A stretch of 64,000 nucleotides of DNA from Alphaproteobacteria bacterium (lineage in GTDB: Bacteria > Pseudomonadota > Alphaproteobacteria > Rs-D84), in assembly GCA_015062445.1 (NCBI GenBank), contig SUUQ01000003.1, positions 15,623-79,622 of the forward strand, read 5' to 3'. A model generated the notes under the pieces. That model had not been told where the DNA came from. It saw only the letters and a program-made list of their open reading frames with translations, and did no database searches. Shown one piece after another: positions 1 through 49,093 of the stretch. Position 1 is the stretch's first letter, and every line of letters begins with the position of its first letter. The translations under genes were made by a program, and so were the position numbers.

Positions 1-573
1 GGGCAGGTCACGACGACATGCGTCCAATTTCGTGCCAAACAGCGTGTCTGTGTCGCCCGCACATTTTGTAAAGTCAGATCCACACTTTTCCATCATGCAG
101 GCACGTAAATTCGCATCACACGCATTTTGACCAGATGACAGAGATTTTTTCGTCTGGGTCGCCGCCGCAGTCGATGCATCAAGCGCATCCAACGCCGCAC
201 GTTGTGCACGGATGGCATCTGCCAGGGCGCTGCCGGATGTGTCGGTGCCTGGGGTGTTCGTATTCAGTAATTCGTCAAATTGTGACGATTTGTCTGTGAT
301 AATTGTTTCTGTTTCTGTTTCGGTTTCGTCAGTGTCGCTGATGTCCGTGGATTCTGATTGGGGGGCCGGGTCTGGTTGCGATGTGTCAGATTGGGCAGCG
401 GTGGTGGCCTGGATGCGGGCCGCCATCGTTGGCATGCGTGATGCTGCAACAGATTTGCGTTGGGTGCGGGATACGACCGTCGCCGCATTCGTATCACAAA
501 TGCACAGCAATCCGCACAGGGCGGATATTAATGATGCGGATAAAATATTTTGCGACTTTTTCATCTGTGTGCG
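1..573 (-). CDS. Secreted cysteine-rich protein, member of the paralog family; N-terminal part only, as the gene continues beyond the window start
   Basis: Manual translation of the minus strand from ATG at 571-573 is open to the window edge: MKKSQNILSASLISALCGLLCICDT.. (signal peptide), acidic TDETETETE linker, then NACDANLRACMMEKCGSDFTKC, which matches the C-x2-AY-x2-CMD-x-FC family motif. Absent from the ORF track because it has no stop in the window. Confidence 0.5.
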
Positions 574-579
574 TGCCCC

Positions 580-1443
580 TTAGTCAATCGTGCTGCATGC
601 AATTTCATAGAATTTACACAGCTGGGTTGCCATTGAACGTTCTGATTCATAGCCAGCACCACAGCCGTTCTTCATGTTGTTCTGGCAGACGGTTTCAATA
701 CAGCTGTCACGGGTCGAATTGTCCGTGCAGCCCGATTTTATTTGTGATAACCGCTTTTGACGGGCGGATTTATATGTGTCAACAATCTGGGCCAATATTG
801 TGTCTGCGTTCTTAATCGCATTGTCACGATCCGATATTAACTGTGAACGAATGTCAGACAGATAGTCGTCACAGCCAGTCGTTTCAACACCGCAGGCAGA
901 AAAAAATTTGTCAAAGTCACTGTCCGATTCGCAATTGCGAAAGTTCGCAGTACAGTGCTTGTCAGATATCAAACATGCACGTATGGATGTTGAACACGTT
1001 GTACGTGATTTTGATTGGGCCATCTTGTCCAGTGTTTGATCCAACTGGGCAGAAACACCCGCTGCACGACACGATTGTTCAATTAAGCTGTCATAAGTTT
1101 CAGATACGTCATCGGCAGTGCAACCAGATACCTTTTTTATGCACTGACGGGCCGCCCAGGCATATCGCTGACCAGGGTCAGATGGGGCAGACTTTAATTC
1201 CTTGTCCGATATGTTGTATTTGGCAGATGCACCAACCGATACAGATCGCATGCCAGTCTTGGGCGGTGTCCCAGCCCCAGATGTGCCACAATACTGGCAC
1301 CGGGCAGATGGATTCGATGATACGTTTATCGCACATACAGAATCAAGACAACGCGTCAAATTCGCACGTGAACATGTGGGCGCAGCATTGGCACCACTGA
1401 ATATCAACAGGATTGGTAATAAAAATAATGTGTGTGTTTTCAT
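580..1443 (-). CDS. Secreted cysteine-rich protein (paralog family), 287 aa
   Basis: Signal peptide MKTHTLFLLPILLIFSGANA and about 30 Cys. The motif C-x-SDKHCTANFRNC matches CIADKGGCGANFENC in the 42837 paralog. Confidence 0.6.
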   Translation of the reverse strand: MKTHTLFLLPILLIFSGANAAPTCSRANLTRCLDSVCAINVSSNPSARCQYCGTSGAGTPPKTGMRSVSVGASAKYNISDKELKSAPSDPGQRYAWAARQCIKKVSGCTADDVSETYDSLIEQSCRAAGVSAQLDQTLDKMAQSKSRTTCSTSIRACLISDKHCTANFRNCESDSDFDKFFSACGVETTGCDDYLSDIRSQLISDRDNAIKNADTILAQIVDTYKSARQKRLSQIKSGCTDNSTRDSCIETVCQNNMKNGCGAGYESERSMATQLCKFYEIACSTID

Positions 1444-2279: not shown

Positions 2280-2396
2280 GTATGTTTTGTTAATGTCGTC
2301 AGTGGCCCATTGTATATGGGCCTTTTTTTGTGCTTTTTTTGGCTGGACATAGAAAAGTATTTTGTGCTAGGATTTGTTTGTACAGAGAGAATATAT

Positions 2397-9079: not shown

Positions 9080-9135
9080 AATTCTGGTGCGAGCAAAGGG
9101 GCTCGAACCCTCGACCTCAACCTTGGCAAGGTTGC
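9080..9135. repeat. attL: 56-bp direct repeat, a displaced copy of the 3' ~51 nt of tRNA-Gly plus 5 nt
   Basis: aattctggtgcgagcaaaggggctcgaaccctcgacctcaaccttggcaaggttgc is identical to 38461-38516. Confidence 0.65.
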
Positions 9136-15110: not shown

Positions 15111-15917
15111 TTATACCGCTTGGAATAGAACATTGATATTGTCAAAAATCAACTTGTTATTAAAAAGTGTCGGACGGATTTCAGATGACCATTCTTCAGT
15201 TCCCACATCGGACCACTCCAACTTCAGTTTTAATGCATAAGGAGCATCTTCTGATATTTGATACATCAAATCTGGGACAAATGGTGTTCCATAGCGATAT
15301 CGTGTAGATAATTTTGCTCGTAAATCTTCTGCGATATCATCTGCCGGTGGAATTGACTTGCCGTTATTGTTTGTATAATAAACAGTCAATCGTAGATTAA
15401 CTGTTACATCGGTTGGTTCATACCACCGCCATGTTATTGTCTGGCCATTATTTAATACAGCGGTTGCCGATTTATTGCCCTCTGACCAGATGCCGCCTGC
15501 CACGCTATTTGTTAAAACATTCACAATTTTTGCTTGTATGTCTTGGGTGGATGTATCCGCAAAGATACACACGGCAATTTTACCTGCATTATCTTCTGAT
15601 ACAGGTCTCACAGATGCCAATAGGCCATTACGTTCAAATTCACCAACAATACCGTCTGGAACACATGCGGGATTCTGCATTCTTGCATTAACTTGGTCAA
15701 AGAAATCAGACAACTTTACCCAGACATCGGCAAATTCAGCATCGCCGTCAATCAATGCTTGAATCATTGGGTATAAAATATCATACCACTGTGTGCCAAT
15801 AAATGAATCTGCCGTATATGTTGTGCCGTAACGTTCATTTATCTTTGGCATAAACAAATTGAACATCCATTCTTCAAATGTTGGTGGCACGTATCCTGTT
15901 TTTGTGTTGTAGGGCAT
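15111..15917 (-). CDS. Phage tail/baseplate protein, hypothetical
   Basis: 268-aa ORF in the structural operon. Confidence 0.45.
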   Translation of the reverse strand: MPYNTKTGYVPPTFEEWMFNLFMPKINERYGTTYTADSFIGTQWYDILYPMIQALIDGDAEFADVWVKLSDFFDQVNARMQNPACVPDGIVGEFERNGLLASVRPVSEDNAGKIAVCIFADTSTQDIQAKIVNVLTNSVAGGIWSEGNKSATAVLNNGQTITWRWYEPTDVTVNLRLTVYYTNNNGKSIPPADDIAEDLRAKLSTRYRYGTPFVPDLMYQISEDAPYALKLKLEWSDVGTEEWSSEIRPTLFNNKLIFDNINVLFQAV

Positions 15918-25689: not shown

Positions 25690-27060
25690 TTATTTCTCCA
25701 CTCGTATTAACCGCATCGCCTCCATAAGTCCTGCAACAGAGTCCGGAGCATCGTCGTGCGATGCAGAAGCATCATAATCACACACCTGTGACACAAACTC
25801 TCGGTTTTCTGCCACATCATCAAACGTAACGATATCTACAGAATTACAAAAAGCCGCCGCCGCTTGTATGCGTGCAATTTTCGGCATAGTATTATGAACT
25901 CCTCGTACAGAAACAAGGCCGCCCATACTTTCGTTGCTTAATTCTCGTGCGAGTCTTACCGGCATATCGCCGACACCGTTTGTTTCTATCGTTATATCGG
26001 AAACCCCAAAATACTGACAATATTTCAAGAAATCTCCATTATCAAAGATTTCATAATATGGTTTTTTCCAAACAAAACCCGTTATCTGCAATCTTTGAAA
26101 GCACATAGCACCTATGCAAAATGCTGTATAGTCGCCCCCTTTGTGCGATGGGTCCAAGTATGCAAAAACTGTCCCATTTGGATTCCAGTCGTCTTTTTTT
26201 GTTATCTTGGCAAACAAAGATTCATTGGCCGCTGATAAATCCAACTCATAGTTAATTGCGTAAAGTTCTGGGGCCATAGACCGCTTTTTCTGTTCTAACT
26301 GTGCCGCTGTGAACAGTCCCGTCACTCCAACTGGGTATTTGTGCACATTTTTAAATCGGGTGGTTCCATCATTACGGTGCCAAGGGGTGCAAAAATTAGC
26401 CCTGACACCACCACGATTTAACGTATTTTCCAGTTCATCAAGAAATCTATGTGTTTTTGTTCGTTCTGCCTCGCTGTATCGGTCATCCTTATCAACAATG
26501 TCGTCTGTCGTGACATCATTAAAGTGCTTTCCTGTGATACTACCGTTAATTCCGCATCCATACAATGCAGACTCTCCCTTGATGGGCTGATAATAATTCG
26601 TGTCTATCTCAGTGTCTGTGGCACGTGTTAAAACGATTGGGAACCCCCATATCATTTCAGATAATTTTACCAGTGGCAAAGAACGCAGATGTCGTTGCGT
26701 GCCTCGCACAACCTCACGCACCTTTTCGTCTGTTTTGCGAAAGAAACCATAATTTCGCCTTGGAAACAAAATCAATTTAAGGGCAAGCCCGACACATAAA
26801 ACAGATGTTTTAAAACTTTCACGATGCCCCATTATCGTAATTTCACTTGAATTACGCAAAAAATCAACTAGCCATTGCCCATGCATTTCGCTGGTATCAG
26901 TCAATCCTAGTTTGTGCAACAACGCAACCGGTTGATTAAAAATATAATCAACTGCCGCCTGTCTTCTTTTTTTCTGGGAATAAGATTTCGTTTTCAAAAC
27001 TATCGGCCTCATTTTGGTCAATATGGCCCATAACCTCAACTTTGTCGGTGGGTTTTTCAC
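25690..27060 (-). CDS. terL: Terminase large subunit
   Basis: Walker A-like MGHRESFKTS and a nuclease domain (FAYLDPSHKGGDYTAFCI, HDDAPDSVAGL). Confidence 0.8.
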   Translation of the reverse strand: MKNPPTKLRLWAILTKMRPIVLKTKSYSQKKRRQAAVDYIFNQPVALLHKLGLTDTSEMHGQWLVDFLRNSSEITIMGHRESFKTSVLCVGLALKLILFPRRNYGFFRKTDEKVREVVRGTQRHLRSLPLVKLSEMIWGFPIVLTRATDTEIDTNYYQPIKGESALYGCGINGSITGKHFNDVTTDDIVDKDDRYSEAERTKTHRFLDELENTLNRGGVRANFCTPWHRNDGTTRFKNVHKYPVGVTGLFTAAQLEQKKRSMAPELYAINYELDLSAANESLFAKITKKDDWNPNGTVFAYLDPSHKGGDYTAFCIGAMCFQRLQITGFVWKKPYYEIFDNGDFLKYCQYFGVSDITIETNGVGDMPVRLARELSNESMGGLVSVRGVHNTMPKIARIQAAAAFCNSVDIVTFDDVAENREFVSQVCDYDASASHDDAPDSVAGLMEAMRLIRVEK

Positions 27061-32946: not shown

Positions 32947-33756
32947 ATGTCAAACGAATTAATTTCAACAACAACATCTGGATTCACACAAGAACAGGTT
33001 GATTTAATAAAACGCACAATCGCAAAAAACTCTACGGATGACGAATTGGCAATGTTCTTAGGAATTTGTAAGAGAACCGGCCTTGATCCTTTTGGTCGTC
33101 AAATATACGCAATCAAAAGATATGATTCTCGTGAAAAACGTGAGGTTTTATCAACACAAGTATCTATTGACGGCTTAAGATTGGTCGCAGAACGAAGTGG
33201 AAAATATGCAGGGCAAAAACCTGTTGAATGGTGTGATGACAAGGGGAATTGGGTCGATGTGTGGCTTACATCTACACCACCTGCGGCGGCCCGAGTCGGG
33301 GTTATGCGTTCCGATTTCAATGAACCGTTATATGCGATCGCCCGATTTACTGCTTATGCACAAAAAAATCGTGATGGTTCTCTATCCAATATGTGGGCCA
33401 AGATGCCAGAACTTATGATCGCAAAAGTAGCCGAAGCATTAGCATTACGCAAGGCTTTCCCACAAGAATTATCCGGTTTATACACTCGTGAAGAAATGGA
33501 CCAAGCAGATAATGCGCCTGTTGCAGTGCCTAATATACAAGATGCGGTTGTTGTTGAAAAGACACAACCGGCACCACAAGAACTGCCAGACGAAGTGTTA
33601 CAAGAAATCAATAGTTGTCAGGACATTGTTGCGATTGGTGCTGTTCTGCGTAAATACGCAAAAGAATATGACGTTGCCTTGTTATCTGCGGCCGGAACCG
33701 CACGAAAAAAAGAACTGTTAATCGAATTAGAACAAAAAGGTGGTACAAATGAATAA
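32947..33756 (+). CDS. recT: RecT-family single-strand annealing recombinase
   Basis: [25 protein letters not shown]...[12 protein letters not shown] matches RecT-family conservation. Confidence 0.7.
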
Positions 33757-34672
33757 TGAATTAGGCGATCGCAGTCAATACATTGGCGGTTCAGATATTG
33801 CCGCAATCTTAGGAATTTCTCCTTGGAAAACACGTAATGCTTTGTTGCGTGAAAAAATAACACAAGAACACCGTAATTTTTCTACGGCCGCAACTCGTTT
33901 CGGGCACGACAACGAAAGCACTCTGATAAATTTTGATGCTTTGACAGTTGGCTATGAAACGGATGCTGAAACCCCTGTAATTGAAAATCCAAAATTCGGA
34001 CCATTGTCATTTGATTTCCCTATGATATTGCACCTTGACGGAATGGGGACTATGCCAGATGGCGAACGCATACTTATAGAATGTAAAACATCTGGAACGG
34101 CTTTCAATGGTACCTTGCCTGAATATTACAAACCTCAGGTTCAAACATATTTAGCCGCATTAGAAAATCAGGGTGTGCATCGTGCACGTATTGTGTTCGG
34201 TCTGCGTTCAGAAGACAAAATTGGCGAAACTGAGGGCTTTTGGGTTGAAGCGGACAAGGATTATTTCCAAAACACGATCGTCCCAGCAGTTGCTAGTTTT
34301 TGTCTAGAGGTTAATGCCGGCAGACAACGCATTGCCGCAGGCGAAAGTATTGACGATATATTGCCTGTAACCACAGCAGATGCGGTTGCAATTATGGGAG
34401 ATACCGCAATTCAAAATGTCAGCAATGCTTTGGACATGATTGAACACTACAACTCTATTGTCGATGAATTCAAAAAGACTCTAAAAGAGAAAATGGAAAC
34501 TGCGGGTATTACGAGTGCACGTTTTGGAAATTATGTTGCCTCCATTACTGCGGCAACAGTCCGCAAAACATTAGATACTGCCGCAATCAAGCGGGATTAT
34601 CCGGGAACTTTTGACCGTTACACAAAAGAAACCAAAGTCGCAAGTTCTTTGCGTATAACAAAAAAGAAATGA
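33740..34672 (+). CDS. YqaJ-like viral exonuclease (PD-(D/E)XK)
   Basis: [19 protein letters not shown]-terminal motif. Paired with recT, as in phage recombination modules. Confidence 0.7.
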
Positions 34673-37142: not shown

Positions 37143-37439
37143 ATGAAACAAGAACAAAGGAAATATGTCGGTATAACACAGGCGGCGAAAATAGTCGGAA
37201 AATCCTATAAGGGGTTTATGAAAAAGGTAGATTTGGGTCAAATCCCTTATTTTATGGACGGAGACCGCATGTGCTTTTATATCGATGAACTGACAAAACA
37301 ACCGGAATCACAATGTCATATAAAATCTATAAAAGAAAAACATCGCCGGTCTATTATGCGAGAATCTCGGTCCGCATCAACGGCCAGACAAAACTTGAAA
37401 GGTTCTCAACTCACGAATCTAGCCGAGATAAGGCCTTAG
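37143..37439 (+). CDS. xis: Excisionase-like HTH protein
   Basis: YVGITQAAKIVGKSYKGFMKKV...IPYFMDGDRMCFYIDEL is AlpA/Xis-like. Lies immediately upstream of int and overlaps it. Confidence 0.55.
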   Translation: MKQEQRKYVGITQAAKIVGKSYKGFMKKVDLGQIPYFMDGDRMCFYIDELTKQPESQCHIKSIKEKHRRSIMRESRSASTARQNLKGSQLTNLAEIRP

Positions 37440-38332
37440 AAATCGCACGAATGGCGGAACAAAAACTGCTTGCCCATAATGGTGCAGTTGATATCACAAT
37501 AGAACAGGCTTTTGGGGAGTTTTACAAACGAGAAAGCCAAAACTATACCGCCCCCAAAAATATTTATTATGCATTATCTCAATTTTCTGCATTTTTTGGG
37601 GGCCTCAGACCCTTTTCTTCTCTTACAAACGCAGACATAAATAATTTTATTTACTCAAGGCAGGTCGAGGGACGTGCCCCAGCAACTATAAATCGTCAGT
37701 TAGTCATATTGTCCAAGGTAATTTCAACCTGTAAAAAGAAATGGGGCTTTGTTGCCCCTGATGTGCATCCACTAGAATTTAAATTACGGGAACCTGACGG
37801 ACGTATTGGTCTCGTGAACGACGACGACCGACAGAAAATAATGGATGCTGCCGCACCACACTTAAAATTGGCTATGCAGATTGCTTATTATACAGGACTT
37901 CGTAAAGGCAACATTTTGTCGTTGCGCTGGGATGAAATCGATACCGAACGTTGGTCTATAACAAAATTCATAAAAGACAGCAACTTTAAAGGTGGTCGTG
38001 CCCATACAGTATTTATCCCTGATGCCCTAAAGAGCATTCTGCAGGCAATACCGCACACCTGTGATTATGTTATCGCCATAGACGGGAAACCAATCAAAGA
38101 CCTTAAAACAGCATGGCATGCCGCCTGCCGCAGAGCGGGTATTCCGCATCGCAAATACACCTTTCACGATGTCCGGCATGGATCAGCGACAGCGGTCGTT
38201 CGTACAACAAATTCGTTATATGCCGCCCAGGTATTTTTAGGGCACAAATCTCCCAAAATGACCCAACGGTATGCTAAATTTTTAGATGAAGACAAGATAA
38301 GAATCGCACACTCTGTGTTTGACAATAAATAG
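37313..38332 (+). CDS. int: Tyrosine integrase
   Basis: C-terminal HDVRHGSATAVV...LGHKSPKMTQRYAKF gives the R..HxxR..Y catalytic residues. Lies adjacent to attR and tRNA-Gly. Confidence 0.85.
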   Translation: MSYKIYKRKTSPVYYARISVRINGQTKLERFSTHESSRDKALEIARMAEQKLLAHNGAVDITIEQAFGEFYKRESQNYTAPKNIYYALSQFSAFFGGLRPFSSLTNADINNFIYSRQVEGRAPATINRQLVILSKVISTCKKKWGFVAPDVHPLEFKLREPDGRIGLVNDDDRQKIMDAAAPHLKLAMQIAYYTGLRKGNILSLRWDEIDTERWSITKFIKDSNFKGGRAHTVFIPDALKSILQAIPHTCDYVIAIDGKPIKDLKTAWHAACRRAGIPHRKYTFHDVRHGSATAVVRTTNSLYAAQVFLGHKSPKMTQRYAKFLDEDKIRIAHSVFDNK

Positions 38333-38460: not shown

Positions 38461-38516
38461 AATTCTGGTGCGAGCAAAGGGGCTCGAACCCTCGACCTCA
38501 ACCTTGGCAAGGTTGC
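38461..38516. repeat. attR: 56-bp direct repeat identical to 9080-9135
   Basis: Exact repeat that forms the 3' portion of the intact tRNA-Gly. Confidence 0.65.
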
Positions 38517-38542
38517 GCTCTAGCCAACTGAGCTACGCTCGC
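38466..38542 (-). tRNA. tRNA-Gly (anticodon GCC)
   Basis: Manual fold: acceptor GCGAGCG/TGCTCGC, D arm GCTC-AGTTGGCTA-GAGC, anticodon stem CAACC/GGTTG with loop TTGCCAA, T arm GAGGG-TTCGAGC-CCCTT, and an encoded CCA. Confidence 0.85.
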
Positions 38543-38599: not shown

Positions 38600-38630
38600 A
38601 TAAAAATCCCGCCGGGGCGGGATGATTTAT
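38600..38630. terminator. Rho-independent terminator
   Basis: ATCCCGCCggGGCGGGAT hairpin. Confidence 0.5.
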
Positions 38631-39355
38631 TCTGAAAAATATTGCTGCTTTTGCGTTTGTGATGTCTTGTACATTGCGTCAAATTTCGATTCTGCCGCCG
38701 CCAACGATGCGGGGTTATCACCCAGGGGCGCATCGTAATCAGCACCGTTTAGTGTAATAATTCTGGTTGGTTCTTGTTTGCTGCCGCATTCAATATAATA
38801 TTCAGATGGATTATAATATTTGCCATAGCATTTGCCATTGTCAACAAAGGCATAACCCATTTCGGCCAATGTTTCGCAGTTTGGATTTTCGCCAGTTGTT
38901 GATATTTCGCCGTTTTCCAAGAATTCATCTGGATTGGATAAAATGCCAGAACACCATACGGGTACATAGGTGTTGCCAACATATGCCATAGAGCCGCCTT
39001 CGGCGGTTTTTCGGCGGCCAAAGCAATCACCGTATTCGGATAATTCATTTACGTCAAAATCATTGCGGATGTTTTCGCCACGCAATATCGCACTGCGTTC
39101 CATTGCGACAGCATCGTCGCCAGTCGGATTTTTCAACGCGTCTGCGCAGATTAATTTTAATCCCCAACAGTTTCCAGATTTGTCCCACGATTCGGGATTG
39201 CCCATTTCAATAAAATAACCTGCGGTCATGTTGGTATAGCAGTTCGCTGGATTTATACGACATACGGTTGGACGTAACCACCATGGTACAACATCTGCGT
39301 GTGATGCCGTTATAATGCATAATGAACAAAATGAAAGATATATTAGTTTTTTCAT
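38627..39355 (-). CDS. Secreted cysteine/tryptophan-rich protein (start moved to internal ATG at 39355)
   Basis: Signal MKKLIYLSFCSLCIITASHA preceded by an aggaaagg RBS, with about 16 Cys. Confidence 0.5.
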   Translation of the reverse strand: MKKLIYLSFCSLCIITASHADVVPWWLRPTVCRINPANCYTNMTAGYFIEMGNPESWDKSGNCWGLKLICADALKNPTGDDAVAMERSAILRGENIRNDFDVNELSEYGDCFGRRKTAEGGSMAYVGNTYVPVWCSGILSNPDEFLENGEISTTGENPNCETLAEMGYAFVDNGKCYGKYYNPSEYYIECGSKQEPTRIITLNGADYDAPLGDNPASLAAAESKFDAMYKTSQTQKQQYFSE

Positions 39356-39411: not shown

Positions 39412-42360
39412 TTATTCGGTTGTCCCATCGAACCAAAATGAGTATATCGTTTGGTTATTCATGGTGGCATATGTTGGAGATTTTCCATCGTTGATGTTAA
39501 AGAAGTTGCCTGCGGGGTCAGAACTTGTATGTTGCAGGGTTGAATATAGTCCAAGTTTGCATGATGGGTTTGTCGAGCAGGTTGCGCGCGCAACATCGGA
39601 TGGCCATGTTGGTTGTTCGCCGCATATGGCAGAAACTGTTTGAGTCGTTGGCGTTATGGCACCATTTGGGCAACATCCTGCGTTTGTTGTGTTGTTAAGT
39701 GTTAGAGTGACAGTCGCACCAGCCGTGCATGATAAGCTGGGGCCACTGTTGCTGCCACTGGAACTGCTGCCTGTGCCACTGCCTGTGCCACTGCCTGTGC
39801 CAGTTGTTGCGGATGCAGATGTGGTGGTGGTTGCGTTGGGATCTGTGGCGCAGAAACCCCATTTTGTGTTTGCACCGGTTTCATCATAAAATGCCTTGTT
39901 TTGTGTGTGGCCGGTGTCGTCATGTTTCAGGTCGGGGTTGGTTTGGTTTAGCCCCAGAATAGTGGAGTTTTCCTTTTCGCATGCCTGCTGTAGGTTGGCG
40001 GTGTCGGTGGCATCTTTGCCGGTTATTGTGTTGCAGTTTTTGATTTTGTCAATCCATACGGTGTTCACCCAAATGCCGCCCCAACGTTCACATTCGACAG
40101 ATAATGATTGTGCCATTGATACACGGAACTTGTCCATGACCATATTTATGTCTTGCATAACTGTGGCAGGTAATTCGTTTGTATTTTCAGATGGACGGGC
40201 ACATGCCTGACGTGCGTGACGAACCAGTTTGTGATACATACTGCCAACATAGTCGGGACCGCATATACCGTATTCGAATTTGTTTATGTTGTTTTCAAGA
40301 ACTGGCGCTGCGGTTCCGCCATCGCATCTGTACCCAGTGTAACATTCTAAGCACTGGTTACCAGGTTTTTTGTTTGGATCTGGTTCGTTGTTATAGGCCA
40401 GGAAATATCCGGCTTTGCACGATGTGTATATGCGACTGCCAACCGGGCACATGTATGCAGGGCGGGTTGGGGTAAATGTCGAATCTGGGACAGGTTCGCC
40501 ACCACCACTGATACCAATGGTGTTCGATGTGGTTTCATTCTTGGTTATGTCATTGCATATAGTAATTTGGGCATATTTTTGTTCGCCGGGGGCATACATG
40601 CGACATGCGTATGGGTATCCGTGTGTAGAATCGTTGTCGGGTGGAATACACAGCGTGTTTGCAAAATCTTGCAGGGCTGTGGCACAATTGTTCGCAATTT
40701 GTTGCGTGGTTATGTTCTTCATCGCGTTTAATAATTCGGCAAAACCATTTGGGCCGCCACCGTACAGGTTGCTGCAGGCGTCCAGTTTTTCACGACACAT
40801 TTCTTCGGATAATTCTAGTTGGGTGCCCAACAGTAACTGTTCATCGGTATTGCTGAAGTCTTTTAATGATTGACGTTGGCTGTCATAGCAATTGTTTACA
40901 ACGTCCAGACACTCTGTTTTGACCTGGCGGATGCGATCTTGTTGACCTTGGTATATTTCGCTGATTGCCTGGCGCAGAAATTCGTCCCAGACGGTGTCTG
41001 CAATGTCACGACAAGTGTCCAGTCCGCGTTCGGCAAAAATACGCTTGCGATTTAATTCGGCAACCAGCAGACGGTTCGACTGATTCGTCAGAACATCACC
41101 AGATAATGATATTTGTGATGTTAACTGATAAAAGTTTGGGCTGTAAATCGGTTCGCCCGTTTCAATGTTCAAGTATAACCCAGTTATGTCCAGACAGTGT
41201 ATATAATCTGTGCCACATGCAGTGTCGGCTGTGATGTCTTGGCGAACCTGGGCGATGCAGTCGTGGATTGTGCTGGAATTGTGTGCGTTATAGGTTTCCA
41301 GGCGGGCAATGTTCATTGCGTGTTCGGTATTGCGGATGTTGCTGTTGGCATTGGTTAGTTGTTTATCCAGGTTGTCAATTAACAGTGAACAGTCGTTCTC
41401 GATATACATGCCATATGCAGATACAACCATTGTTTGGGTTTCTGAACTGGGGCATTTGTCCGCGACAAGTTCGGAACACTGGGCGTGAACTGCGTTGTAT
41501 AATGCTTCGCCTGTCAGGTTGGCGATGTTGACACCACCCGCAAGATCCGTTGTGGCCCAAATCGCGTTGATGTCGCCGGCAATGTCCAGGGTGCCTTGGG
41601 TTGATAATGATTTCTTTTTTGTATCGTAAAGGATTTCACTGATGCCGGACAAGTGTGATGCACTGGCAGATTTATCGCGGGTTATGGATTGTGTGTATTC
41701 GCCGGCAGATGCGGACATCATTGCGTTTACCTCGCCTGCGGTCTTGTCAATAATGGCCAGGTTCAGGTTGGTAAAATCTTGTAATTGATCAGATGCCTGG
41801 GACAGGGCACGCTCGCGTGATTGAATTTCGGTTAGTTTTGATGAGCATATGCACCGGCGATACGTATCGCTTGCTGTTGAACAAAACTGATCCATGCAGG
41901 TGAAATATGCATCGCGACATGTGTTATAGCCAGTGCCAAATGTTATGGAATCGTGCGCAGACATGGTAATTGTTGCGCGGGAATTGGTCGCAGATCGGGC
42001 CGCACGACCAGCAGATGCGTTTACTGCCCCAGAACGTGATGTGCCAGTTATCCCGCCAGCGCGGGGGGCAGGTGTCTTTTTGGTTGCTGTGCGGGCAATG
42101 GTGGTTGTGGTACTGCGGTCATTTGTTGCAGTGCGTGATGTCGTTTTGGATGGGGGTGTGGCTGTGCGCGCAATTGTTGTGCGTGCAACTGTGCGTGGTA
42201 TCAATGGACGGGTGACGGTGCTGCTGCTGTTGTTGGCGGTGCGTGCGACTGTTTGTTTGGATTGGGGGCCGCGTACAGGTGAATTTTCATCGCGAACAGC
42301 GGCATTGGATATACCAATGCCCAATATCAGGGTCAGGATAAAATAATAAACCTTTCTCAT
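39412..42360 (-). CDS. Large secreted cysteine-rich protein (paralog family), Ser/Thr/Arg-rich N-terminal low complexity and (GSGT)n tract
   Basis: Signal MRKVYYFILTLILGIGISNA and the family motif CRDAYFTCMDQFCSTASDTYRRCICS. Confidence 0.6.
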   Translation of the reverse strand: MRKVYYFILTLILGIGISNAAVRDENSPVRGPQSKQTVARTANNSSSTVTRPLIPRTVARTTIARTATPPSKTTSRTATNDRSTTTTIARTATKKTPAPRAGGITGTSRSGAVNASAGRAARSATNSRATITMSAHDSITFGTGYNTCRDAYFTCMDQFCSTASDTYRRCICSSKLTEIQSRERALSQASDQLQDFTNLNLAIIDKTAGEVNAMMSASAGEYTQSITRDKSASASHLSGISEILYDTKKKSLSTQGTLDIAGDINAIWATTDLAGGVNIANLTGEALYNAVHAQCSELVADKCPSSETQTMVVSAYGMYIENDCSLLIDNLDKQLTNANSNIRNTEHAMNIARLETYNAHNSSTIHDCIAQVRQDITADTACGTDYIHCLDITGLYLNIETGEPIYSPNFYQLTSQISLSGDVLTNQSNRLLVAELNRKRIFAERGLDTCRDIADTVWDEFLRQAISEIYQGQQDRIRQVKTECLDVVNNCYDSQRQSLKDFSNTDEQLLLGTQLELSEEMCREKLDACSNLYGGGPNGFAELLNAMKNITTQQIANNCATALQDFANTLCIPPDNDSTHGYPYACRMYAPGEQKYAQITICNDITKNETTSNTIGISGGGEPVPDSTFTPTRPAYMCPVGSRIYTSCKAGYFLAYNNEPDPNKKPGNQCLECYTGYRCDGGTAAPVLENNINKFEYGICGPDYVGSMYHKLVRHARQACARPSENTNELPATVMQDINMVMDKFRVSMAQSLSVECERWGGIWVNTVWIDKIKNCNTITGKDATDTANLQQACEKENSTILGLNQTNPDLKHDDTGHTQNKAFYDETGANTKWGFCATDPNATTTTSASATTGTGSGTGSGTGSSSSGSNSGPSLSCTAGATVTLTLNNTTNAGCCPNGAITPTTQTVSAICGEQPTWPSDVARATCSTNPSCKLGLYSTLQHTSSDPAGNFFNINDGKSPTYATMNNQTIYSFWFDGTTE

Positions 42361-42456
42361 CCGAGTGTACTGTACAGGTATATGTTATCAAAAAATGTAA
42401 TCACAGACAAGAAAAATGAATGAAAAATACAGAAAAAAACCCACCGATTGGTGGGA

Positions 42457-42705
42457 TTAATTTGATGCGGTGTCGGTGCCAGGACGGGTGCGTTCAACAA
42501 ATGTTATGCGACCCTTGTCCAAATCGTATGGGGTCATTTCAACACGAACACGTTCGCCAACGTTAACCCATATGCGCAGTTTGCGCATCTTGCCACAGAC
42601 AGTCGCCAAAATTTCATGCCCGTTATCTAGCTTTACACGGAACATTGTGTTGGGCAGTTTGTCTTCGACAGTGCCACTGAATACGATTACATCATCTTTT
42701 GCCAT
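42457..42705 (-). CDS. infA: Translation initiation factor IF-1
   Basis: [55 protein letters not shown] is near-canonical IF-1. Confidence 0.9.
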
Positions 42706-42836
42706 TGTTTATTCCTAAGTGTTTTATTCGTGATATCCTATAATAAATACTGGAAAAATGCAAGCGGTTTTTATCTGCTTGCACCCGGGGCGAACATCTG
42801 ATAAAATAATACATAACTTATGTAGGGTGGAGTCGA

Positions 42837-44987
42837 ATGAATATAAGAATTCTTGCATCATTATTGGTTTTAATTCCTGGGGCGGCGTTCGCAGCAGAAC
42901 GTGATGCAAATGCACGTGTCGGTGTACAGCGTGTTTCAATGGCGGGTGTGCGGGGGCCAAATATGGCGAAAAATATTCAGGCAACCTTGCCACTGAATGG
43001 TGGTGGACAAATTGAAAATAATGGTGGGCAAACGCCACCTGTTCAGCCAGATTCAGGGGGTGTTAATCAGCCAACAGATGATGTTGAACAGAAACCAAAT
43101 GGCAGTCAGGACTGTCGCGAGGCATATCGGGCATGTATGGATGAATTTTGTCTGCTGGATGAATCCGAAGGGTATAGATGTGCGTGTTCTTCAAATATTA
43201 ATCAGTCAAAGTCGCTGATACAGGAAATTCAGAAAATCCAGGAAGAGGCAGATAAACTGTATACCGAAGGTGTAGAGCGAGAACAACTGGGGGCGAAAGT
43301 TCGACTGGTGTTCGGTGAAAGTGAAGCAGCAAAGAAAAGTTCGCGCGCATCAGGGCTTAGTTTTACTGAGTGGTTGAACAGTGGAAACGAAACAGATGAT
43401 GAAGCGCTGGATGCCGATGAAGATATTGGTGATGGGCTGTATGCAATGGCATCAGAATACTGTGCGTCAGAACTGGAATCGTGCGGAACCAAGGCAGAAA
43501 TGGAAGAAATGCTGTATTCGCGTCAGATTGTTGCGGACTGTAAGGGATTTAGTTCATATCTGACAGAGCAAAAGGCAAATGCGCAGGCAAATAAACGCAC
43601 CGCAGAGGCGGCTGTGCGTCAGGCCAGATTAGCAATGTTGGACACAACGAACCGGTATAATCGTGGTGAGTGCCTGTTGGCATATCGTTCATGTATTGCA
43701 GATAAAGGTGGTTGCGGCGCAAACTTTGAAAACTGTTTGGATGTTGATTTGCTGGGGCGGCGTGCGAATGCCTGTGAAAATGTGCTGGATCAATGTCTGG
43801 CAGTCAAAGATTATGTGTTGCAAGATTGGGCGGCCGAAGCAGAATCAATACTGGTAGATGCGGCAAAGTATGCAGATAAATATCGCAGACAGACATGTCT
43901 GGCGCAAATTCAAGTTTGTTTGGAAGATGGTTGTTCAACAACAACAAATTCTGCGTGTTTGACAGATGTTAATGTCGCAGCAGGGGTGTGTCCAATTATT
44001 GACGAATGTAATGAAATTATCCCAGGAATTAAGGCCGTTGTAAATGACAAGTTGGGGTATCTGCGTACGCAATTCTGTCAGAACGATATCGATGCATGTT
44101 TGCGTGATAAGTGTGGTGAAAACTTTACTGCACCAGAATGCGTCGGAAAAAAGGTTTCTGAAATTGTTGAAATGTGTCCACAAAATATGTTCCCATCATG
44201 TAAAAATGAAACACAGTTCGATATAATTGTGTCGGCGGCGGTGCTGCAGATGGATTATCAGATGATGCAGGGATGTATTAACTATTTCGGGGAACAGTTG
44301 GGTAAAACGTGCGGAACGGATATGGCTTGTTTGCCGTCTGATGATACGGTTATGGGGCTGACTGAAATCCCAGCAGATGAAGCCAGTATGATTGAACTGA
44401 GAACACGGGTGCGTAATAATGCCCAGTTGGCAGTCGATGAATTCTTTAAGCAATTTGAACAGGATATAACAGTCGCGGCCTGTGCAGATGCAAAAAAACC
44501 AGCAGGACGTAGCAGTCTGGGGGATAGTGTTTTTAATACGGCAAAGTTAATTGCAGAAATTGGTGCGGAAAATCGGGCAATGCGTGAACTGGAATCGAAA
44601 ATTGCAGAACTGTCGCGCCAGCAGGATTTGGCGGCTGCAGAAGCAAACTGCTATGCCACGTACAAGGTGGAAACACCAGATGAGTCTGATAAAAATTATA
44701 GCTATATCCGCAGTGTTTCGTTTGAACCAAGTTTACGCAACTGTCATGTGTGCCGTATGCAGCAGGTTTGTGAAACAGGTGGTGAAACCAAGGGAACTGC
44801 AGGGTTGAAGGGACTGGCAGGCGGATTGTCTGCTGGGGCTGCGGCAGGTACAATGGTAACACCAGGATGGGGAACTGCCATCGGTGGTATTGTTGGTGCA
44901 GTTGGTGGATTCTTTGCGGGACGCAGTGGTGCAGGTCAACAAGATTTCTGTCAGGAAATTGAAAGCTGTGAAGATATAAATATGTAG
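42837..44987 (+). CDS. Large secreted cysteine-rich protein (paralog family), 716 aa
   Basis: Signal peptide, then CREAYRACMDEFCLLDESEGYRCACS, CGANFENC, CENVLDQC, CHVC, and a C-terminal CEDINM. Confidence 0.65.
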   Translation: MNIRILASLLVLIPGAAFAAERDANARVGVQRVSMAGVRGPNMAKNIQATLPLNGGGQIENNGGQTPPVQPDSGGVNQPTDDVEQKPNGSQDCREAYRACMDEFCLLDESEGYRCACSSNINQSKSLIQEIQKIQEEADKLYTEGVEREQLGAKVRLVFGESEAAKKSSRASGLSFTEWLNSGNETDDEALDADEDIGDGLYAMASEYCASELESCGTKAEMEEMLYSRQIVADCKGFSSYLTEQKANAQANKRTAEAAVRQARLAMLDTTNRYNRGECLLAYRSCIADKGGCGANFENCLDVDLLGRRANACENVLDQCLAVKDYVLQDWAAEAESILVDAAKYADKYRRQTCLAQIQVCLEDGCSTTTNSACLTDVNVAAGVCPIIDECNEIIPGIKAVVNDKLGYLRTQFCQNDIDACLRDKCGENFTAPECVGKKVSEIVEMCPQNMFPSCKNETQFDIIVSAAVLQMDYQMMQGCINYFGEQLGKTCGTDMACLPSDDTVMGLTEIPADEASMIELRTRVRNNAQLAVDEFFKQFEQDITVAACADAKKPAGRSSLGDSVFNTAKLIAEIGAENRAMRELESKIAELSRQQDLAAAEANCYATYKVETPDESDKNYSYIRSVSFEPSLRNCHVCRMQQVCETGGETKGTAGLKGLAGGLSAGAAAGTMVTPGWGTAIGGIVGAVGGFFAGRSGAGQQDFCQEIESCEDINM

Positions 44988-45009
44988 TCAACCCACGGGA
45001 GAGAGAAGT

Positions 45010-47475
45010 ATGAAATATAAGTCTGGTTTGTTATGTTCGGTGATGGCAGGATTGATGCTGTTGCCGGCATATAGTGTGGTGGCAGCGCCAAAGAAAGTCA
45101 GTAAACAGTCTGCAATTCAAAAGGGAACATCTGTTCGAACAAAGGCCGATGCCAAGGGGCTGTATGATCAGGCATGTTATGATGCATATTATGGATGTAT
45201 GGATCAATTTTGTATTTCTGATAATGAAAGTGGTGGCAGTTGTGCATGCAGTGATTTACATGAAAAATACGAAAAACAATTCGCAGAAATTCAAGAAATG
45301 ATGGTCGAGGCCGAACGAATCGCAACGGTCGAAGTGGAAAAAGTCAAGGCAGGTGCACAGGCGGATATTATCTTTACAGGTACCAGACAATATGATGAAA
45401 ATGGTAACTTGGTCGATGTTGATGATATATCGGTTGAAGATGAAAAAGAAAAAAAACGTGCAGATTTAATGGCGCTGTGGGAAAATAATTTTGATGCAGA
45501 TCAGGATGATGATATTTGGGGCAGTGAAGGTATTGATTTTTCTGACCTGACTGGCAGTGCACTGTACAAGGCGGCAGAGGAGTTGTGTTTGGAACAAGTG
45601 CCAGAAGAATGTGATGGAGATATATCTTTGTTGCGCAATATGTATTCCAGACAAATTACATCTGATTGTAGAGGGTTCGAAAACAGTTTGGCCGCAAAAA
45701 AGTCCGAGGCAGAATTGGCAATAGCAAATGCAAATGCAGATGTCCGTACGGCATTAAAAGAAAGCTTTGACGAGGCAAATAAATATGATCTGGGACAGTG
45801 TATGGTTCAGTTCAAAAAGTGTATGCAGACCGAGGATGCCTGTGGTGATAATTGGGAAAACTGTGTTTCAGTAATTGCATCTGAAAATATGCAAAATAAT
45901 CAGGCAAAAAGTACTGCTGGGTCCAAGGTTGCAACAGTTGATAAGTATGATATTACGGAATCAACAATGGAAATTATGACCGCAAAACGTACAATTTGTG
46001 AAAATGTCTTGGGACAGTGCATGGCAGTGCGGGACATGGTTTGGCCAGCATTCCTGCGCGAGGCAGCACCTACAATTAAAGTGGCAGAAGCGGCCGCAGA
46101 ATCAAAATTCCGTCAGTCTTGTCTGACAAATATTTCAAACTGTATTCAACGGGCGTGTAAAGATGATATTGCCGGTAAAGGGGTAGATTCAATGGATGCA
46201 TGTCTGTCACGACCAGATATGGCACGCAGTTTCTGTAAAGTTGAAATTGACCCATGTGAAAGGATGGAGCCGTTGATTTGGGGGTATGTTGTCGATAAAC
46301 TGGCCGCAATGCGTGTCGATGCGTGTACCCAGGAGGTTAAAGATTGCTTTACCGCAGATACACGTTGCGGGGAAAATTTCCAGAACTGTATTGGTATGGA
46401 CTATGAATTTATCCATGAGATTTGTCCGATTGACAGTCTGGTCGTGTGTAAAGCCAATAATCCAAATTTCTCGATGGATGACTTAGATTCGATGTTGATG
46501 GGACTGTATCTGAATATTGATAATTCTGCACTGGATCAGTGTCAGGAAATTGTCGACAGAAAAATGGCTGAAATTTGCGGCAGTACAACAGACTGTAACA
46601 GATTTGCTGCAGATGATACAATCGGTACAGGCAGTTTGCGTTCCCAGAAAGATGGAAATGTCTATCGGGTTACAGGTATGATTTCGTTCGGTTCAATTAA
46701 AATGGGCGATGCATCTGGAAAAACCCAGGATGTTGGTGATGATGCATCTGTAAAACTGGGGCCGGGTGAAATCGGTGTCCAGGAATACCTGGCCCAGGTT
46801 CGTGAACGTAATGCAAATGTTGCAAATGCAGAAGCAATCATTTCAACAATCGAAGCGGAATTGAATAATATCGCAGGTACAATTAATCGTACAATTGAAA
46901 TGATTGAATCTGACCCAGAAGTACAATTCTGTGTGTCGGGACGTGATTTGTCACAAATTACCGGCAAAAGTGGTCAGAAGACAACGGCAAGATTCCCGAA
47001 CCTGTTGAACCAGGTTAAAATGCAAATTGCAATTTCGGCACTGCGTCAGGCACAAGATAACTATAATGAAAAGTTTAATGGCGCAGTTGCAGATGCGACC
47101 AAGGATGCATCGGCAGATCTGGCAGAATATATGTGTCATAAGATTGCACAAAGTGGCGGATTGGCAATCGGGGCAGTTGGGGTTGATACACCATTGGCAC
47201 CACCATACGCAATTTCATATGATGTTGGGACAGGGTTGACGGCCCAGGATTTGACACAAGGCGGAATAGGTGAAACATCATTCAAAAGCGATAATGGCAG
47301 TGGTATGTCAAAAGAAACAACTGCGGTCTTTAATCGTGATGCAAGAATCTGTCATGTGTGTACAACAATTACAACACAAAGTTGTACGGTCAAAGGGGGA
47401 AATTGGTTCCGGAAAAAGAACACCAGTTGTACCACAGAAACAAAAGACCCAATTTGTGAAGATATTCAAATGTAG
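45010..47475 (+). CDS. Large secreted cysteine-rich protein (paralog family), 821 aa
   Basis: Signal peptide, then CYDAYYGCMDQFCISDNESGGSCACS, CGDNWENC, CENVLGQC, ICHVC, and a C-terminal CEDIQM. Confidence 0.65.
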   Translation: MKYKSGLLCSVMAGLMLLPAYSVVAAPKKVSKQSAIQKGTSVRTKADAKGLYDQACYDAYYGCMDQFCISDNESGGSCACSDLHEKYEKQFAEIQEMMVEAERIATVEVEKVKAGAQADIIFTGTRQYDENGNLVDVDDISVEDEKEKKRADLMALWENNFDADQDDDIWGSEGIDFSDLTGSALYKAAEELCLEQVPEECDGDISLLRNMYSRQITSDCRGFENSLAAKKSEAELAIANANADVRTALKESFDEANKYDLGQCMVQFKKCMQTEDACGDNWENCVSVIASENMQNNQAKSTAGSKVATVDKYDITESTMEIMTAKRTICENVLGQCMAVRDMVWPAFLREAAPTIKVAEAAAESKFRQSCLTNISNCIQRACKDDIAGKGVDSMDACLSRPDMARSFCKVEIDPCERMEPLIWGYVVDKLAAMRVDACTQEVKDCFTADTRCGENFQNCIGMDYEFIHEICPIDSLVVCKANNPNFSMDDLDSMLMGLYLNIDNSALDQCQEIVDRKMAEICGSTTDCNRFAADDTIGTGSLRSQKDGNVYRVTGMISFGSIKMGDASGKTQDVGDDASVKLGPGEIGVQEYLAQVRERNANVANAEAIISTIEAELNNIAGTINRTIEMIESDPEVQFCVSGRDLSQITGKSGQKTTARFPNLLNQVKMQIAISALRQAQDNYNEKFNGAVADATKDASADLAEYMCHKIAQSGGLAIGAVGVDTPLAPPYAISYDVGTGLTAQDLTQGGIGETSFKSDNGSGMSKETTAVFNRDARICHVCTTITTQSCTVKGGNWFRKKNTSCTTETKDPICEDIQM

Positions 47476-47477
47476 CA

Positions 47478-47510
47478 TTCAGACGGGGCAAAGTCGCCCC
47501 GTCTTTTTTG
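47478..47510 (+). terminator. Rho-independent terminator
   Basis: GACGGGGCaaagtcGCCCCGTC followed by a T run. Confidence 0.5.
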
Positions 47511-47588: not shown

Positions 47589-47975
47589 ATGAAAATATTT
47601 TCAATGTCTGTGTTGATGTCCGTTTTGACGATTGGATTGGCGTCTGCAAATTTCCAGGGACCAGATGCCGCCGCACCAGTGGCAACAAATTCCAAGGGCG
47701 GATTCGTCAGCGGTGCAGAAACAATCGTTACTGTCAAGCAGGTAAATGAAATGCGGGATGATGTTCCGGTTATTATCAAGGGACATATTGTTCAACGTAT
47801 GGGCGATGAAAAATATCTGTTCGAAGATGCAACGGGGTCAATCACTGTTGAAATTGATGATGACGATTGGCGGGGACAGACAATTACACCAACTGATACA
47901 GTAAAAATGTATGGCGAAGTTGATCGTGGAATATTCAAGACTGAAATTGATATAGACTATGTTGAAAAAATCTGA
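47589..47975 (+). CDS. YgiW/YdeI (BOF, bacterial OB-fold) family periplasmic protein
   Basis: TVKQVNEMRDDVPVIIKGHIVQRMGDEKYLFEDATGSITVEIDDDDW..VKMYGEVDRGIFKTEIDIDYVEKI matches the BOF family pattern. Signal peptide present. Confidence 0.75.
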   Translation: MKIFSMSVLMSVLTIGLASANFQGPDAAAPVATNSKGGFVSGAETIVTVKQVNEMRDDVPVIIKGHIVQRMGDEKYLFEDATGSITVEIDDDDWRGQTITPTDTVKMYGEVDRGIFKTEIDIDYVEKI

Positions 47976-47983
47976 ATAAAAAA

Positions 47984-48012
47984 CTAATCCCCCAAATCGG
48001 GGGATTTTTTTT
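47984..48012. terminator. Bidirectional terminator
   Basis: AATCCCCCaaatcGGGGGATT flanked by A and T runs. Confidence 0.5.
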
Positions 48013-49093
48013 AGTCAATCTGGACAGGTGTGATGGTTTGACGTTTGACCGTGTCCAGGGGATGATATTGAAATGGTACGGCAACAAAGTCTATGTCGTG
48101 CATGTCGATGCTGCGAATCGTGCGGTTGTACATGGTGTGATAGTATATCCGCATGTTCTGCAGGTCGGTCGCAATTGTCCACTGGGTTGCCGCGGGCATG
48201 TCGTTGGGGGCCCTGCCGACTGCAAATTGCACGCCCAATGGAACGTTGACGTTGTCCAATATCTGAAATGCCTGTTGCATTGCGTTATATGCGTTGCTGG
48301 GGGGCAGTGAATAGGTTTGTAAAAATGCAGCACGTACAAATCGTGATGGTGGGGTAAAGTCCCCAGGTAACCCCAAAAATCCAGCCCCAGAACCAAATGC
48401 ACGCAATGTTATTGGGCCGAACTTGGTTGGGCCTGCACCGCCAGGATGCAGATTTACATAGTTGTTCAGATTTGTCATGTGCCATGGAAAGCCCGGTGAA
48501 TTTGTTAATACACCAATTTCATTTTCGTAAAAGTTGGGACGACCATCAACAATTTCCATAACAACTTGGCGGCCGGATGGCTCGGTTATGCGCCAGTGGA
48601 CAGTCGCTGCGGATGGGTCTACGTTGATAATGCGAACATTGTTTATCGCTGATTTTACCTGGTCTATGCTGGAAAATCGAGACAGTATCCAGGATACAAC
48701 CTGGAAATCGGCCAAAGATATGTCTTGGTCGTTTTCGTTGTATGGTTCATATTCGCCATAGTTGGGAAAGTAAAACAAGGCCGCAGATAAACCGGCTTCG
48801 TTCGTGCCGTCAATCACAAATTCTGGTTGCTGGACCGCCAGACCAACATATCCATACAATGATATAAATGACAGACCGTCCATTTCACCGTTGGGTAATA
48901 ATGATTGCTGGGCATGGCCACGGGGGACGATTGTGTACATGCTGTTGTTTTCTGCGCCAGACCAGTCCATCGTACGGGCCGCAATTGTGGCACCGTCTGT
49001 GGATTTTACTGTGATGCCTGTGCAGGCAAATGCCGCAGGTGACAGTAAAAACATGGCTGCGGCAGTGGTTAGTATTGTTTTGCGTGTGTTCAT
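48011..49093 (-). CDS. Choloylglycine hydrolase / linear amide C-N hydrolase family (Ntn-hydrolase) protein
   Basis: Signal peptide ending ..AAFA|CTGITVKSTDG, giving the N-terminal Cys nucleophile. Length and pattern fit the CBAH family. Confidence 0.7.
   Translation of the reverse strand: MNTRKTILTTAAAMFLLSPAAFACTGITVKSTDGATIAARTMDWSGAENNSMYTIVPRGHAQQSLLPNGEMDGLSFISLYGYVGLAVQQPEFVIDGTNEAGLSAALFYFPNYGEYEPYNENDQDISLADFQVVSWILSRFSSIDQVKSAINNVRIINVDPSAATVHWRITEPSGRQVVMEIVDGRPNFYENEIGVLTNSPGFPWHMTNLNNYVNLHPGGAGPTKFGPITLRAFGSGAGFLGLPGDFTPPSRFVRAAFLQTYSLPPSNAYNAMQQAFQILDNVNVPLGVQFAVGRAPNDMPAATQWTIATDLQNMRIYYHTMYNRTIRSIDMHDIDFVAVPFQYHPLDTVKRQTITPVQID

Follow-up and report, generated by a model that had tools for sequence, protein, structure and literature searches.

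A conserved trio of cysteine-rich exported proteins in gut Alphaproteobacteria of the order Rs-D84

The stretch of DNA analysed here, referred to as the window, spans 64,000 nucleotides of contig SUUQ01000003.1 (assembly GCA_015062445.1, forward-strand positions 15,623 to 79,622) and carries three large genes whose products are called proteins A, B and C. They are ancient paralogues, and their family is specific to one lineage of gut Alphaproteobacteria, the order Rs-D84 with Candidatus Enterousia and its relatives. They constitute a fixed, strongly constrained one-to-one-to-one trio with fast-evolving appendages, present in about 70 species. The window itself comes from Candidatus Enterousia, an uncultured alphaproteobacterium of this order; the lineage lives in the gut and has genomes below 1 Mb.

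On sequence grounds, A, B and C are clear paralogues, homologous far beyond chance. The initial annotation had proposed a paralogous family of Sec-exported cysteine-rich proteins in this region, and both its open reading frames (A and the smaller proteins D and E on the minus strand, B and C on the plus strand; Table 1) and the family itself proved real. B matches C with a BLASTP E-value of 2e-54 (28% identity over 487 aa), while A matches C at 4e-22 and B at 2e-12. A hidden Markov model (HMM) built from 153 family sequences scores A at 438 bits, B at 520 bits and C at 814 bits, and a three-way alignment contains about 20 invariant cysteine columns spanning some 450 residues. The ordered cysteine motifs that had been described as common to all members are complete in B and C, where MYSRQIxxDC[RK]GF, CG[AD]N[FW]ENC, CENVLxQCxAV[RK]D, CHVC and a C-terminal CEDI[NQ]M occur as written. 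A retains only the first motif (C-x2-AY-x2-CMD-x-FC...C-x-CS) together with the cysteine skeleton and has diverged at the others.

A signal peptide of the n-h-AxA type, in which a positive N-terminus and a hydrophobic stretch precede a cleavage site of the A-x-A type, can be read from the sequence at the start of A, B, C, D and E, and in a Kyte-Doolittle scan this N-terminal segment is the sole hydrophobic stretch of A, C and D. In A, the signal peptide (aa 1-20) is followed by a variable S/T/R-rich linker (aa 21-140), a conserved cysteine-stapled helical core (aa 141-620), a cysteine-rich middle part (aa 621-780) and a hypervariable tail (aa 781-982). B is composed of a signal peptide, a variable linker, a cysteine-stapled helical core and a C-terminal domain with a glycine-zipper insertion, and C of a signal peptide, a cysteine-stapled helical array (aa 54-714) and a small beta domain (aa 736-820). 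Cysteines make up 3.8-7% of proteins A-E. B has three copies of the module C-x6-C-x4-6-C-G-x-N-F-x-N-C, which is about 22-27 aa long, C has two, and D and E have one each. The core is also internally repetitive: its segment 181-345 aligns with segment 346-535 at an hhalign probability of 87% (E 4e-6).

The arrangement of these cysteines points to paired residues. Conserved cysteines are spaced i/i+7 on helices, and the mature proteins B, C and D hold 36, 36 and 20 of them, all even numbers. In every A-type sequence, Cys271 and Cys330 of C have both given way to other residues, a joint change that would be expected if the two were bonded. Taken together, the even counts and this joint loss suggest that the cysteines are bonded in pairs.

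Purifying selection on the shared core is strong. B has 77 orthologues with a mean identity of 0.73, in which all 36 cysteines are conserved at 0.96-1.00, and C has 80 orthologues (mean identity 0.69), in which all mature cysteines are conserved at 0.97-1.00. A is more divergent than B and C, with orthologues in 69 species that are 48-65% identical (mean identity 0.46); its core (aa 141-620) reaches an identity of 0.55-0.77 per block, with all core cysteines conserved. Pairwise Nei-Gojobori estimates for species pairs at least 80% identical give dN/dS values of 0.04-0.05 for the cores of A, B and C and for the C-terminal parts of B and C, 0.19 for the middle part of A, 0.22 for the alignable part of the A tail and 0.19-0.31 for the N-terminal linkers. 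Fast evolution is confined to the N-terminal low-complexity linkers and the A tail and proceeds mainly by insertions and deletions. The (GSGT)n stretch of the tail is encoded by a short tandem repeat (Table 1). Diversifying selection, which had been suggested for the family, is therefore ruled out for the A, B and C cores by these low ratios, and the highest value found anywhere is 0.70.

The family is widespread within its lineage. C has more than 1,300 homologues, all of them unnamed or hypothetical proteins of Alphaproteobacteria metagenome-assembled genomes (MAGs), and the same is true of B and D. Among 1.84 billion representatives, 842 clusters at 50% identity match the family profile, 401 of them at E up to 1e-30. 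The best 150 of the 842 sort into A-like, B-like and C-like groups, and the most divergent representatives that were traced again belong to Alphaproteobacteria or Proteobacteria MAGs. A scan of GTDB species genomes, made with the three-sequence core, yielded at least 532 encoding stretches. Two of the best 80 come from bins labelled Muribaculaceae (L048) and Bacteroides fragilis (L052), respectively; all others derive from Candidatus Enterousia or from Alphaproteobacteria/'Rickettsiales' MAGs of human, ruminant, chicken and other guts. A circular genome of 958,618 bp is among the best 80.

Gene order is also fixed in most loci. A on the minus strand followed by B and C on the plus strand is found in 69 of 84 loci, most of the others being incomplete contigs or loci with an extra copy. 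The recurrent layout, present in about 70 of the 80 species loci, is G-A, infA, B-C: in 70 of about 80 loci A is immediately followed downstream by the gene of the exported protein G, and infA (translation initiation factor IF-1; 84-95% identity) separates A from B in 74. C starts 22 nt past the B stop codon. This short gap and the terminator-like hairpins after G, infA and C make A-G and B-C the most likely transcription units. The family had initially been called expanded; what is seen is a one-to-one-to-one set fixed across about 70 species, with no lineage-specific expansion. A fourth, divergent C-like member, 33-36% identical to C, lies a few kb upstream of G in some Enterousia species (L016 3-2927, L031 1-2172 and L043 3-2453), so copy number is not absolutely fixed.

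A divergent lineage from a wolf-gut metagenome (L088, 1654-7370 and 9986-19527; GC 38.6%) carries three full-length members and one partial member after rplQ, beside rpoA/rplQ. Cysteine-rich exported genes are also inserted between rpsK and rpoA in this lineage, one of which encodes a protein of 665 aa that contains 67 cysteines and matches Ephrin_rec_like. The association of the family with ribosomal-gene neighbourhoods, infA in Enterousia and rpsK/rpoA/rplQ in L088, may be old.

Table 1. Features of the window, with positions counted from its first nucleotide.
Feature	Position	Strand	Description
Protein A	39412..42360	minus	982 aa; open reading frame
Hypervariable C-terminal tail of A (aa 781-982)	39415..40020	minus	identity 0.03-0.08, gap fraction 0.56-0.88 in 69 orthologues
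Tandem repeat in A tail	39767-39802		12 bp x3, encodes (GSGT)n stretch
Protein B	42837..44987	plus	716 aa; open reading frame; 36 cysteines
Ribosome-binding site of B		 	GGTGGAG, ahead of B ATG
Glycine-zipper-like hydrophobic segment of B (aa 650-697)	44784..44927	plus	between two cysteines of the C-terminal domain
Protein C	45010..47475	plus	821 aa; open reading frame; 36 mature cysteines
Ribosome-binding site of C			GGGAGAG
Intrinsic-terminator-like hairpin	47481..47504	plus	9-bp stem, 7 G-C pairs, then T run; 6 nt past C stop
infA (IF-1)	42457..42705	minus	between A and B; PF01176 on gene calls
Terminator-like hairpin of infA	42440-42455
Protein G	38627..39355	minus	242 aa, exported, cysteine-containing; open reading frame, start from gene call in L004
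Terminator-like hairpin	38606-38623		just past G stop
Protein D	580..1443	minus	287 aa; exported, 20 cysteines, all-helical; open reading frame
Protein E	1..564	minus	first 188 aa of a 533-aa exported protein, cut at window edge; translation
1224-aa exported protein	2310-5984	plus	no Pfam hit
Left 56-bp direct repeat (att site)	9080..9135		exact repeat
Prophage	~9136-38460		29.4 kb
Tail fibre	11634-13451		prophage
Large terminase	25690-27060		prophage
RecT/RecE	32947-34672		prophage
Integrase	37313-38332		prophage
Right 56-bp direct repeat	38461-38516		overlaps 3' part of tRNA-Gly
tRNA-Gly(GCC)	38466-38542		prophage insertion site
BOF/YgiW-type OB-fold protein	47589-47975	plus	exported; PF04076, 9e-29; own terminator
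Choloylglycine-hydrolase-family protein	48011-49093	minus	exported; PF02275, E 1.2e-66
HExxH protein	49871-54697	minus	1608 aa; exported
Tandem repeats in HExxH gene	52221-52408, 50717-50853		51-bp and 72-bp repeats
316-aa exported protein	54676-55626	minus	its end overlaps the start of the HExxH gene
Autotransporter	58517-61888	plus	1123 aa; PF03797 at 1.2e-31; 1 Cys

By the searches made here, the family has no detectable relatives in curated libraries or the PDB and is lineage-specific and unannotated: none of Pfam, NCBIfam, PHROGs, PADLOC and PDB matched the core. The first four scans covered the proteins labelled A-H. For A, neither Pfam nor NCBIfam returned a family at E up to 1; B, C and D give only sub-threshold matches in these libraries (10-16 bits against cutoffs of 25-38), and no curated family matched the core of 50 B-type members. 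PHROGs returned a weak match to the glycine zipper of B alone, PADLOC a single 19-bit LeoBC hit on the same C-terminal region, and a PDB sequence-profile search gave no hit for the family. With this zipper match as the sole PADLOC signal, a role in anti-phage defence is ruled out. Searches of the literature on Enterousia, on Rs-D84 and on cysteine-rich proteins of reduced-genome Alphaproteobacteria turned up genome descriptions alone, none of which mentions the family.

An AlphaFold2 model of C, computed from an 83-sequence alignment, has a mean pLDDT of 83.5, with 440 residues at 90 or above. It predicts helices across residues 54-714, several of them 30-50 residues long, and a beta domain of about 85 residues at 736-820. 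The translocator of an autotransporter is a C-terminal beta-barrel of about 250-300 aa. A, B and C are ruled out as autotransporters, since none of them matches PF03797 and only some 85 aa of C form its beta region.

The main difference between B and C is a 59-residue loop between C645 and C705 of B, where the equivalent loop of C has 14 residues. This loop is a hydrophobic hairpin rich in Gly-x3-Gly with nearly invariant glycine columns, and a hydropathy scan identifies a Gly-rich stretch at residues 677-695 as the only hydrophobic segment of B besides its signal peptide. Among 50 B-type members, 25 match the glycine-zipper family PF13488 at E up to 1 (best 1.7e-4), 17 match PF13441 and one matches PF05433.

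Proteins D and E, at the left end of the window, are probably related, though only remotely, to the central core of the trio and are not family members in the ordinary sense. The count of at least five members given initially therefore holds only if these two are included on the strength of profile-profile comparison, as neither is significant by BLASTP or HMM search. D has 713 homologues; its orthologues are 58-76% identical, with all 20 cysteines invariant, and its structural model is all-helical with moderate confidence (pLDDT 72.9). The full 533 aa of E were recovered from a related locus (L085, 10880-12481), and the part beyond the window contains a Gly-rich hydrophobic segment and an acidic, lysine-rich tail.

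The alternative that the shared motifs represent a convergent small cysteine module or a compositional artefact, leaving a family of three members here, has to be weighed in this context. With databases ranging from a few to a few hundred sequences, BLASTP of D and E against A, B and C reaches E-values of only 0.002-0.02. E and D are the next-best window open reading frames after A, B and C in the family HMM search, at non-significant E-values of 0.0095 and 0.016, and full-length E obtains a negative, non-significant score. Profile-profile scores, moreover, can be inflated when profiles are rich in cysteine. Set against this, the D family (32 sequences) aligns with the A/B/C profile at an hhalign probability of 83% (E 8.5e-6, 184 columns; D 91-284 onto C 183-417) and the E family (7 sequences) at 90% (E 1.5e-6, 137 columns), and these matches cover the central core only. 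A reversed A/B/C profile, which preserves composition and the symmetric C-x6-C spacing, lowers the probabilities to 2.7% for D and 0.1% for E. The G family, used as a further control, aligns with A/B/C through its signal peptide alone, which rules out G as a family member. D and E also lie close to A, B and C in several genomes. Together, the hhalign scores, the reversed controls and the G control are the basis for treating D and E as probable remote relatives, and convergence appears rather unlikely.

In L085, D and E lie in an operon with a 978-aa protein that has a carboxypeptidase-regulatory-like domain and a C-terminal OmpA (PF00691) peptidoglycan-binding domain. This protein is encoded downstream of E and in the same orientation as D and E (L085, 12506-15442), outside the window. 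Following its CarboxypepD_reg-like N-terminus, it displays many C-x-x-G-Y...C mini-repeats (51 cysteines in total) and two Gly-rich hydrophobic segments. Adjoining it, a protein of 943 aa matches Flg_new and, faintly, Ephrin_rec_like.

A further claimed relative, the large HExxH protein, is ruled out. The weak similarity initially ascribed to it is not significant: its best BLASTP matches to family members have E-values of 1.6-2.8 over 12-24 residues, and it does not appear among family HMM matches at E up to 10. It has a HEFGH motif, a cysteine-rich N-terminal part and a strongly hydrophobic segment near residue 590, and matches no Pfam or NCBIfam family. Tandem DNA repeats in its gene encode N/A/S/D/T-rich peptide repeats, and in samples L001-L003 the protein measures 1585, 1602 and 1608 aa.

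D/E and the G-A/B-C locus are separated by a 29.4-kb prophage bounded by 56-bp direct repeats at a tRNA-Gly gene; the majority of its proteins match nothing in Pfam or PHROG. The position of two relatives at the far left of the window had been taken to indicate dispersal across the chromosome, but without the prophage the two loci would be only about 8 kb apart. In relatives that do not carry it, either G directly adjoins the gene neighbouring D, or D is found a few kb past C. Phage origin of A, B and C is ruled out, as they lie outside the prophage and are conserved in genomes that do not contain it.

Regarding function, A, B and C are quite possibly Sec-exported, disulfide-stapled helical envelope proteins that act together as a scaffold, a reading that is put forward tentatively. 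After export through Sec, they would fold in the periplasm with paired cysteines, each becoming an extended series of alpha-helices held in place by about 18 disulfide bonds. The resulting rods would be rigid, with staples provided by the twin C-x6-C helices and by the repeated C-x6-C...C-G-x-N-F-x-N-C module. B and C would end in a small cysteine-bearing beta domain and A instead in its variable cysteine-rich tail, which may be the exposed, fast-evolving part. The glycine-zipper hairpin of B is probably inserted into a membrane, where it would anchor the assembly, and A, B and C would be subunits of one rigid, cross-linked envelope structure, either periplasmic or associated with the outer membrane. 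D and E, encoded in an operon with the OmpA-domain protein, probably belong to the same envelope system. From these features we infer disulfide formation, location, hetero-oligomer assembly and a structural role.

Several observations support parts of this model. Since the one-to-one-to-one set is under strong purifying selection and B and C appear to be co-transcribed, the three proteins most likely work together. Proteins that are threaded unfolded across the outer membrane are generally poor in cysteine. The autotransporter encoded in the window has one cysteine in 1123 aa, compared with 36 in B and 36 in C, which suggests that A, B and C fold before any further export and argues that they are residents of the periplasm or envelope, or leave the cell already folded. 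Enterousia, placed in the order Rs-D84, has genomes mostly below 1 Mb (PMC12306168; also PMC13196213); it is described as fermentative, without a respiratory chain and without standard sugar, amino-acid or peptide transporters, and is predicted to live as an obligate symbiont or parasite (PMC12306168). A genome of this size with predicted partner dependence (PMC12306168) that maintains three constrained genes of about 2.5 kb points to an important role for their products.

Other points weigh against the envelope scaffold. The host is reported to have no respiratory chains (PMC12306168), so the usual DsbA/DsbB route for oxidizing periplasmic cysteines may be missing. The cysteine count of A is odd (37), and mature G probably has 9. 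The pTM of the C model is 0.53, which makes its domain arrangement uncertain, and the match of the window's B to PF13488 (Gly-zipper_Omp) is sub-threshold (E 0.18, 12.2 bits against a cutoff of 25). Joint function of A, B and C, finally, is inferred from co-conservation and gene order only.

Other explanations have to be considered, which overlap partly with each other and with the scaffold model. A location in the cell envelope or outside the cell, as first suggested, is still plausible, and its surface-protein or adhesin version now stands as a rival. According to this explanation, A, B and C cross the outer membrane and are surface-exposed or released adhesins or proteins interacting with a host or partner, with the A tail binding ligands or serving as an antigenic region. 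Such a role would suit a lineage predicted to depend on other cells and without standard transporters (PMC12306168), and the A tail and the N-terminal linkers vary strongly between species; L001-L003, three of the four loci shown from other samples, end inside A. The neighbourhood is also rich in exported proteins, including autotransporters, and a related locus encodes a protein with an Ephrin_rec_like cysteine repeat. However, no outer-membrane translocation domain or secretion-system gene adjoins A, B and C, few regions are as constrained as the cores (dN/dS about 0.05), which sets them apart from typical adhesin tips, and 36 cysteines would be unusual for proteins threaded by a type V pathway. 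This explanation is credible, though somewhat unlikely.

It is very unlikely that the trio is instead a membrane-active or pore-forming apparatus, in which helical bundles, the zipper of B and the beta domains would build a translocon or a nutrient conduit into partner cells. The glycine zipper of B, the similar Gly-rich hydrophobic segments of E and of neighbouring proteins, and the lack of ordinary transporters in the lineage agree with such an activity, but the signal peptide is the only hydrophobic segment of A, C and D, and dense disulfide stapling would generally hinder the refolding of a pore-former. Still less probable is that the cysteines serve in metal binding or in redox or thiol buffering and form no disulfides, as might suit an anaerobe without a respiratory chain. 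Cysteine density is indeed very high, and in an anaerobic fermenter reported to have no respiratory chains (PMC12306168) periplasmic disulfides are not guaranteed. Nevertheless, the cysteines occur as C-x6-C on helices and not as C-x-x-C, no conserved histidine partners are found among the invariant columns, and the even counts in B, C and D together with the joint loss of one pair in A-type sequences fit bonded pairs.

A more far-reaching version of the scaffold model, which is speculative and quite unlikely, is that A, B and C together with G, D, E and the OmpA-domain protein build an envelope organelle of a kind not seen before, cross-linked by disulfides, for instance a rigid helical lattice or a structure for attachment and contact that underlies the obligate partner dependence of Rs-D84 bacteria. 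If so, 18 disulfides per subunit in a cell reported to have no respiratory chain would imply an unconventional form of periplasmic oxidative folding. If the proteins form an ordinary periplasmic scaffold, the value of the finding is mainly descriptive.

Genes surrounding the trio encode further exported proteins. A BOF/YgiW-type OB-fold protein follows C in 49 of about 80 loci and is thus a further periplasmic component whose gene often remains near the cluster. The choloylglycine-hydrolase-family protein next to it, possibly a hydrolase of bile salts or other linear amides, is a neighbour of the cluster in just 2 of roughly 80 related loci; the metabolism of the host is very limited. The 316-aa protein whose gene overlaps that of the HExxH protein has several Gly/Ala/Thr-rich hydrophobic, glycine-zipper-like segments; E and the L085 protein with the OmpA domain have similar ones, which looks like a recurring theme of the exported proteins of this genome. 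The 1224-aa protein, whose N-terminal part appears ankyrin-like by eye, abuts G or adjoins D in relatives and hence travels with the cysteine-rich loci.

The fixed order of the trio in about 70 species and the conservation of every cysteine make it very likely central to the envelope or to partner contact. Rs-D84/Enterousia bacteria are widespread in human and livestock guts, and the three large genes account for nearly 1% of such a genome. Defining the family offers a handle on this lineage through antibodies, metaproteomic markers, candidate structures and a candidate new domain entry. It also raises the question of how the many cysteines of exported proteins are oxidized in an anaerobe without a respiratory chain.

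Among known systems, the chlamydial proteins OmcB and OmcA offer the best functional analogy for an envelope scaffold made of A, B and C. They too are exported through Sec and dense in cysteines, they belong to the envelope of a host-dependent Gram-negative bacterium with a reduced genome, and they are thought to confer envelope rigidity through disulfide cross-links. Unlike them, however, the Enterousia proteins are mostly alpha-helical, and neither A, B, C and D nor 50 B-type members match Chlam_OMP6 or Chlam_OMP3 at E up to 1; Enterousia also keeps its rod-shape and peptidoglycan genes (PMC12306168). The Hcp proteins of Helicobacter, which contain Sel1-like repeats, are similar in being a secreted, host-associated paralogous family with disulfide-pinned helix pairs. 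In contrast to Hcp, the proteins described here do not match Sel1 (PF08238), are much larger, follow the spacing of C-x6-C twin helices and the C-G-x-N-F-x-N-C module, and form a fixed trio where Hcp is a variable family. CHCH (twin Cx9C) and saposin-like stapled helices serve as analogies only, being no relatives by sequence or fold. The glycine-zipper hairpins of PF13488, of Rick_17kDa_Anti (PF05433) and of SlyB-type lipoproteins resemble residues 650-697 of B alone; B, unlike SlyB-type lipoproteins, has no lipobox, and its remaining 650 aa are unrelated. The trio represents a new family of a familiar general kind, the cysteine-rich exported proteins of host-associated bacteria.

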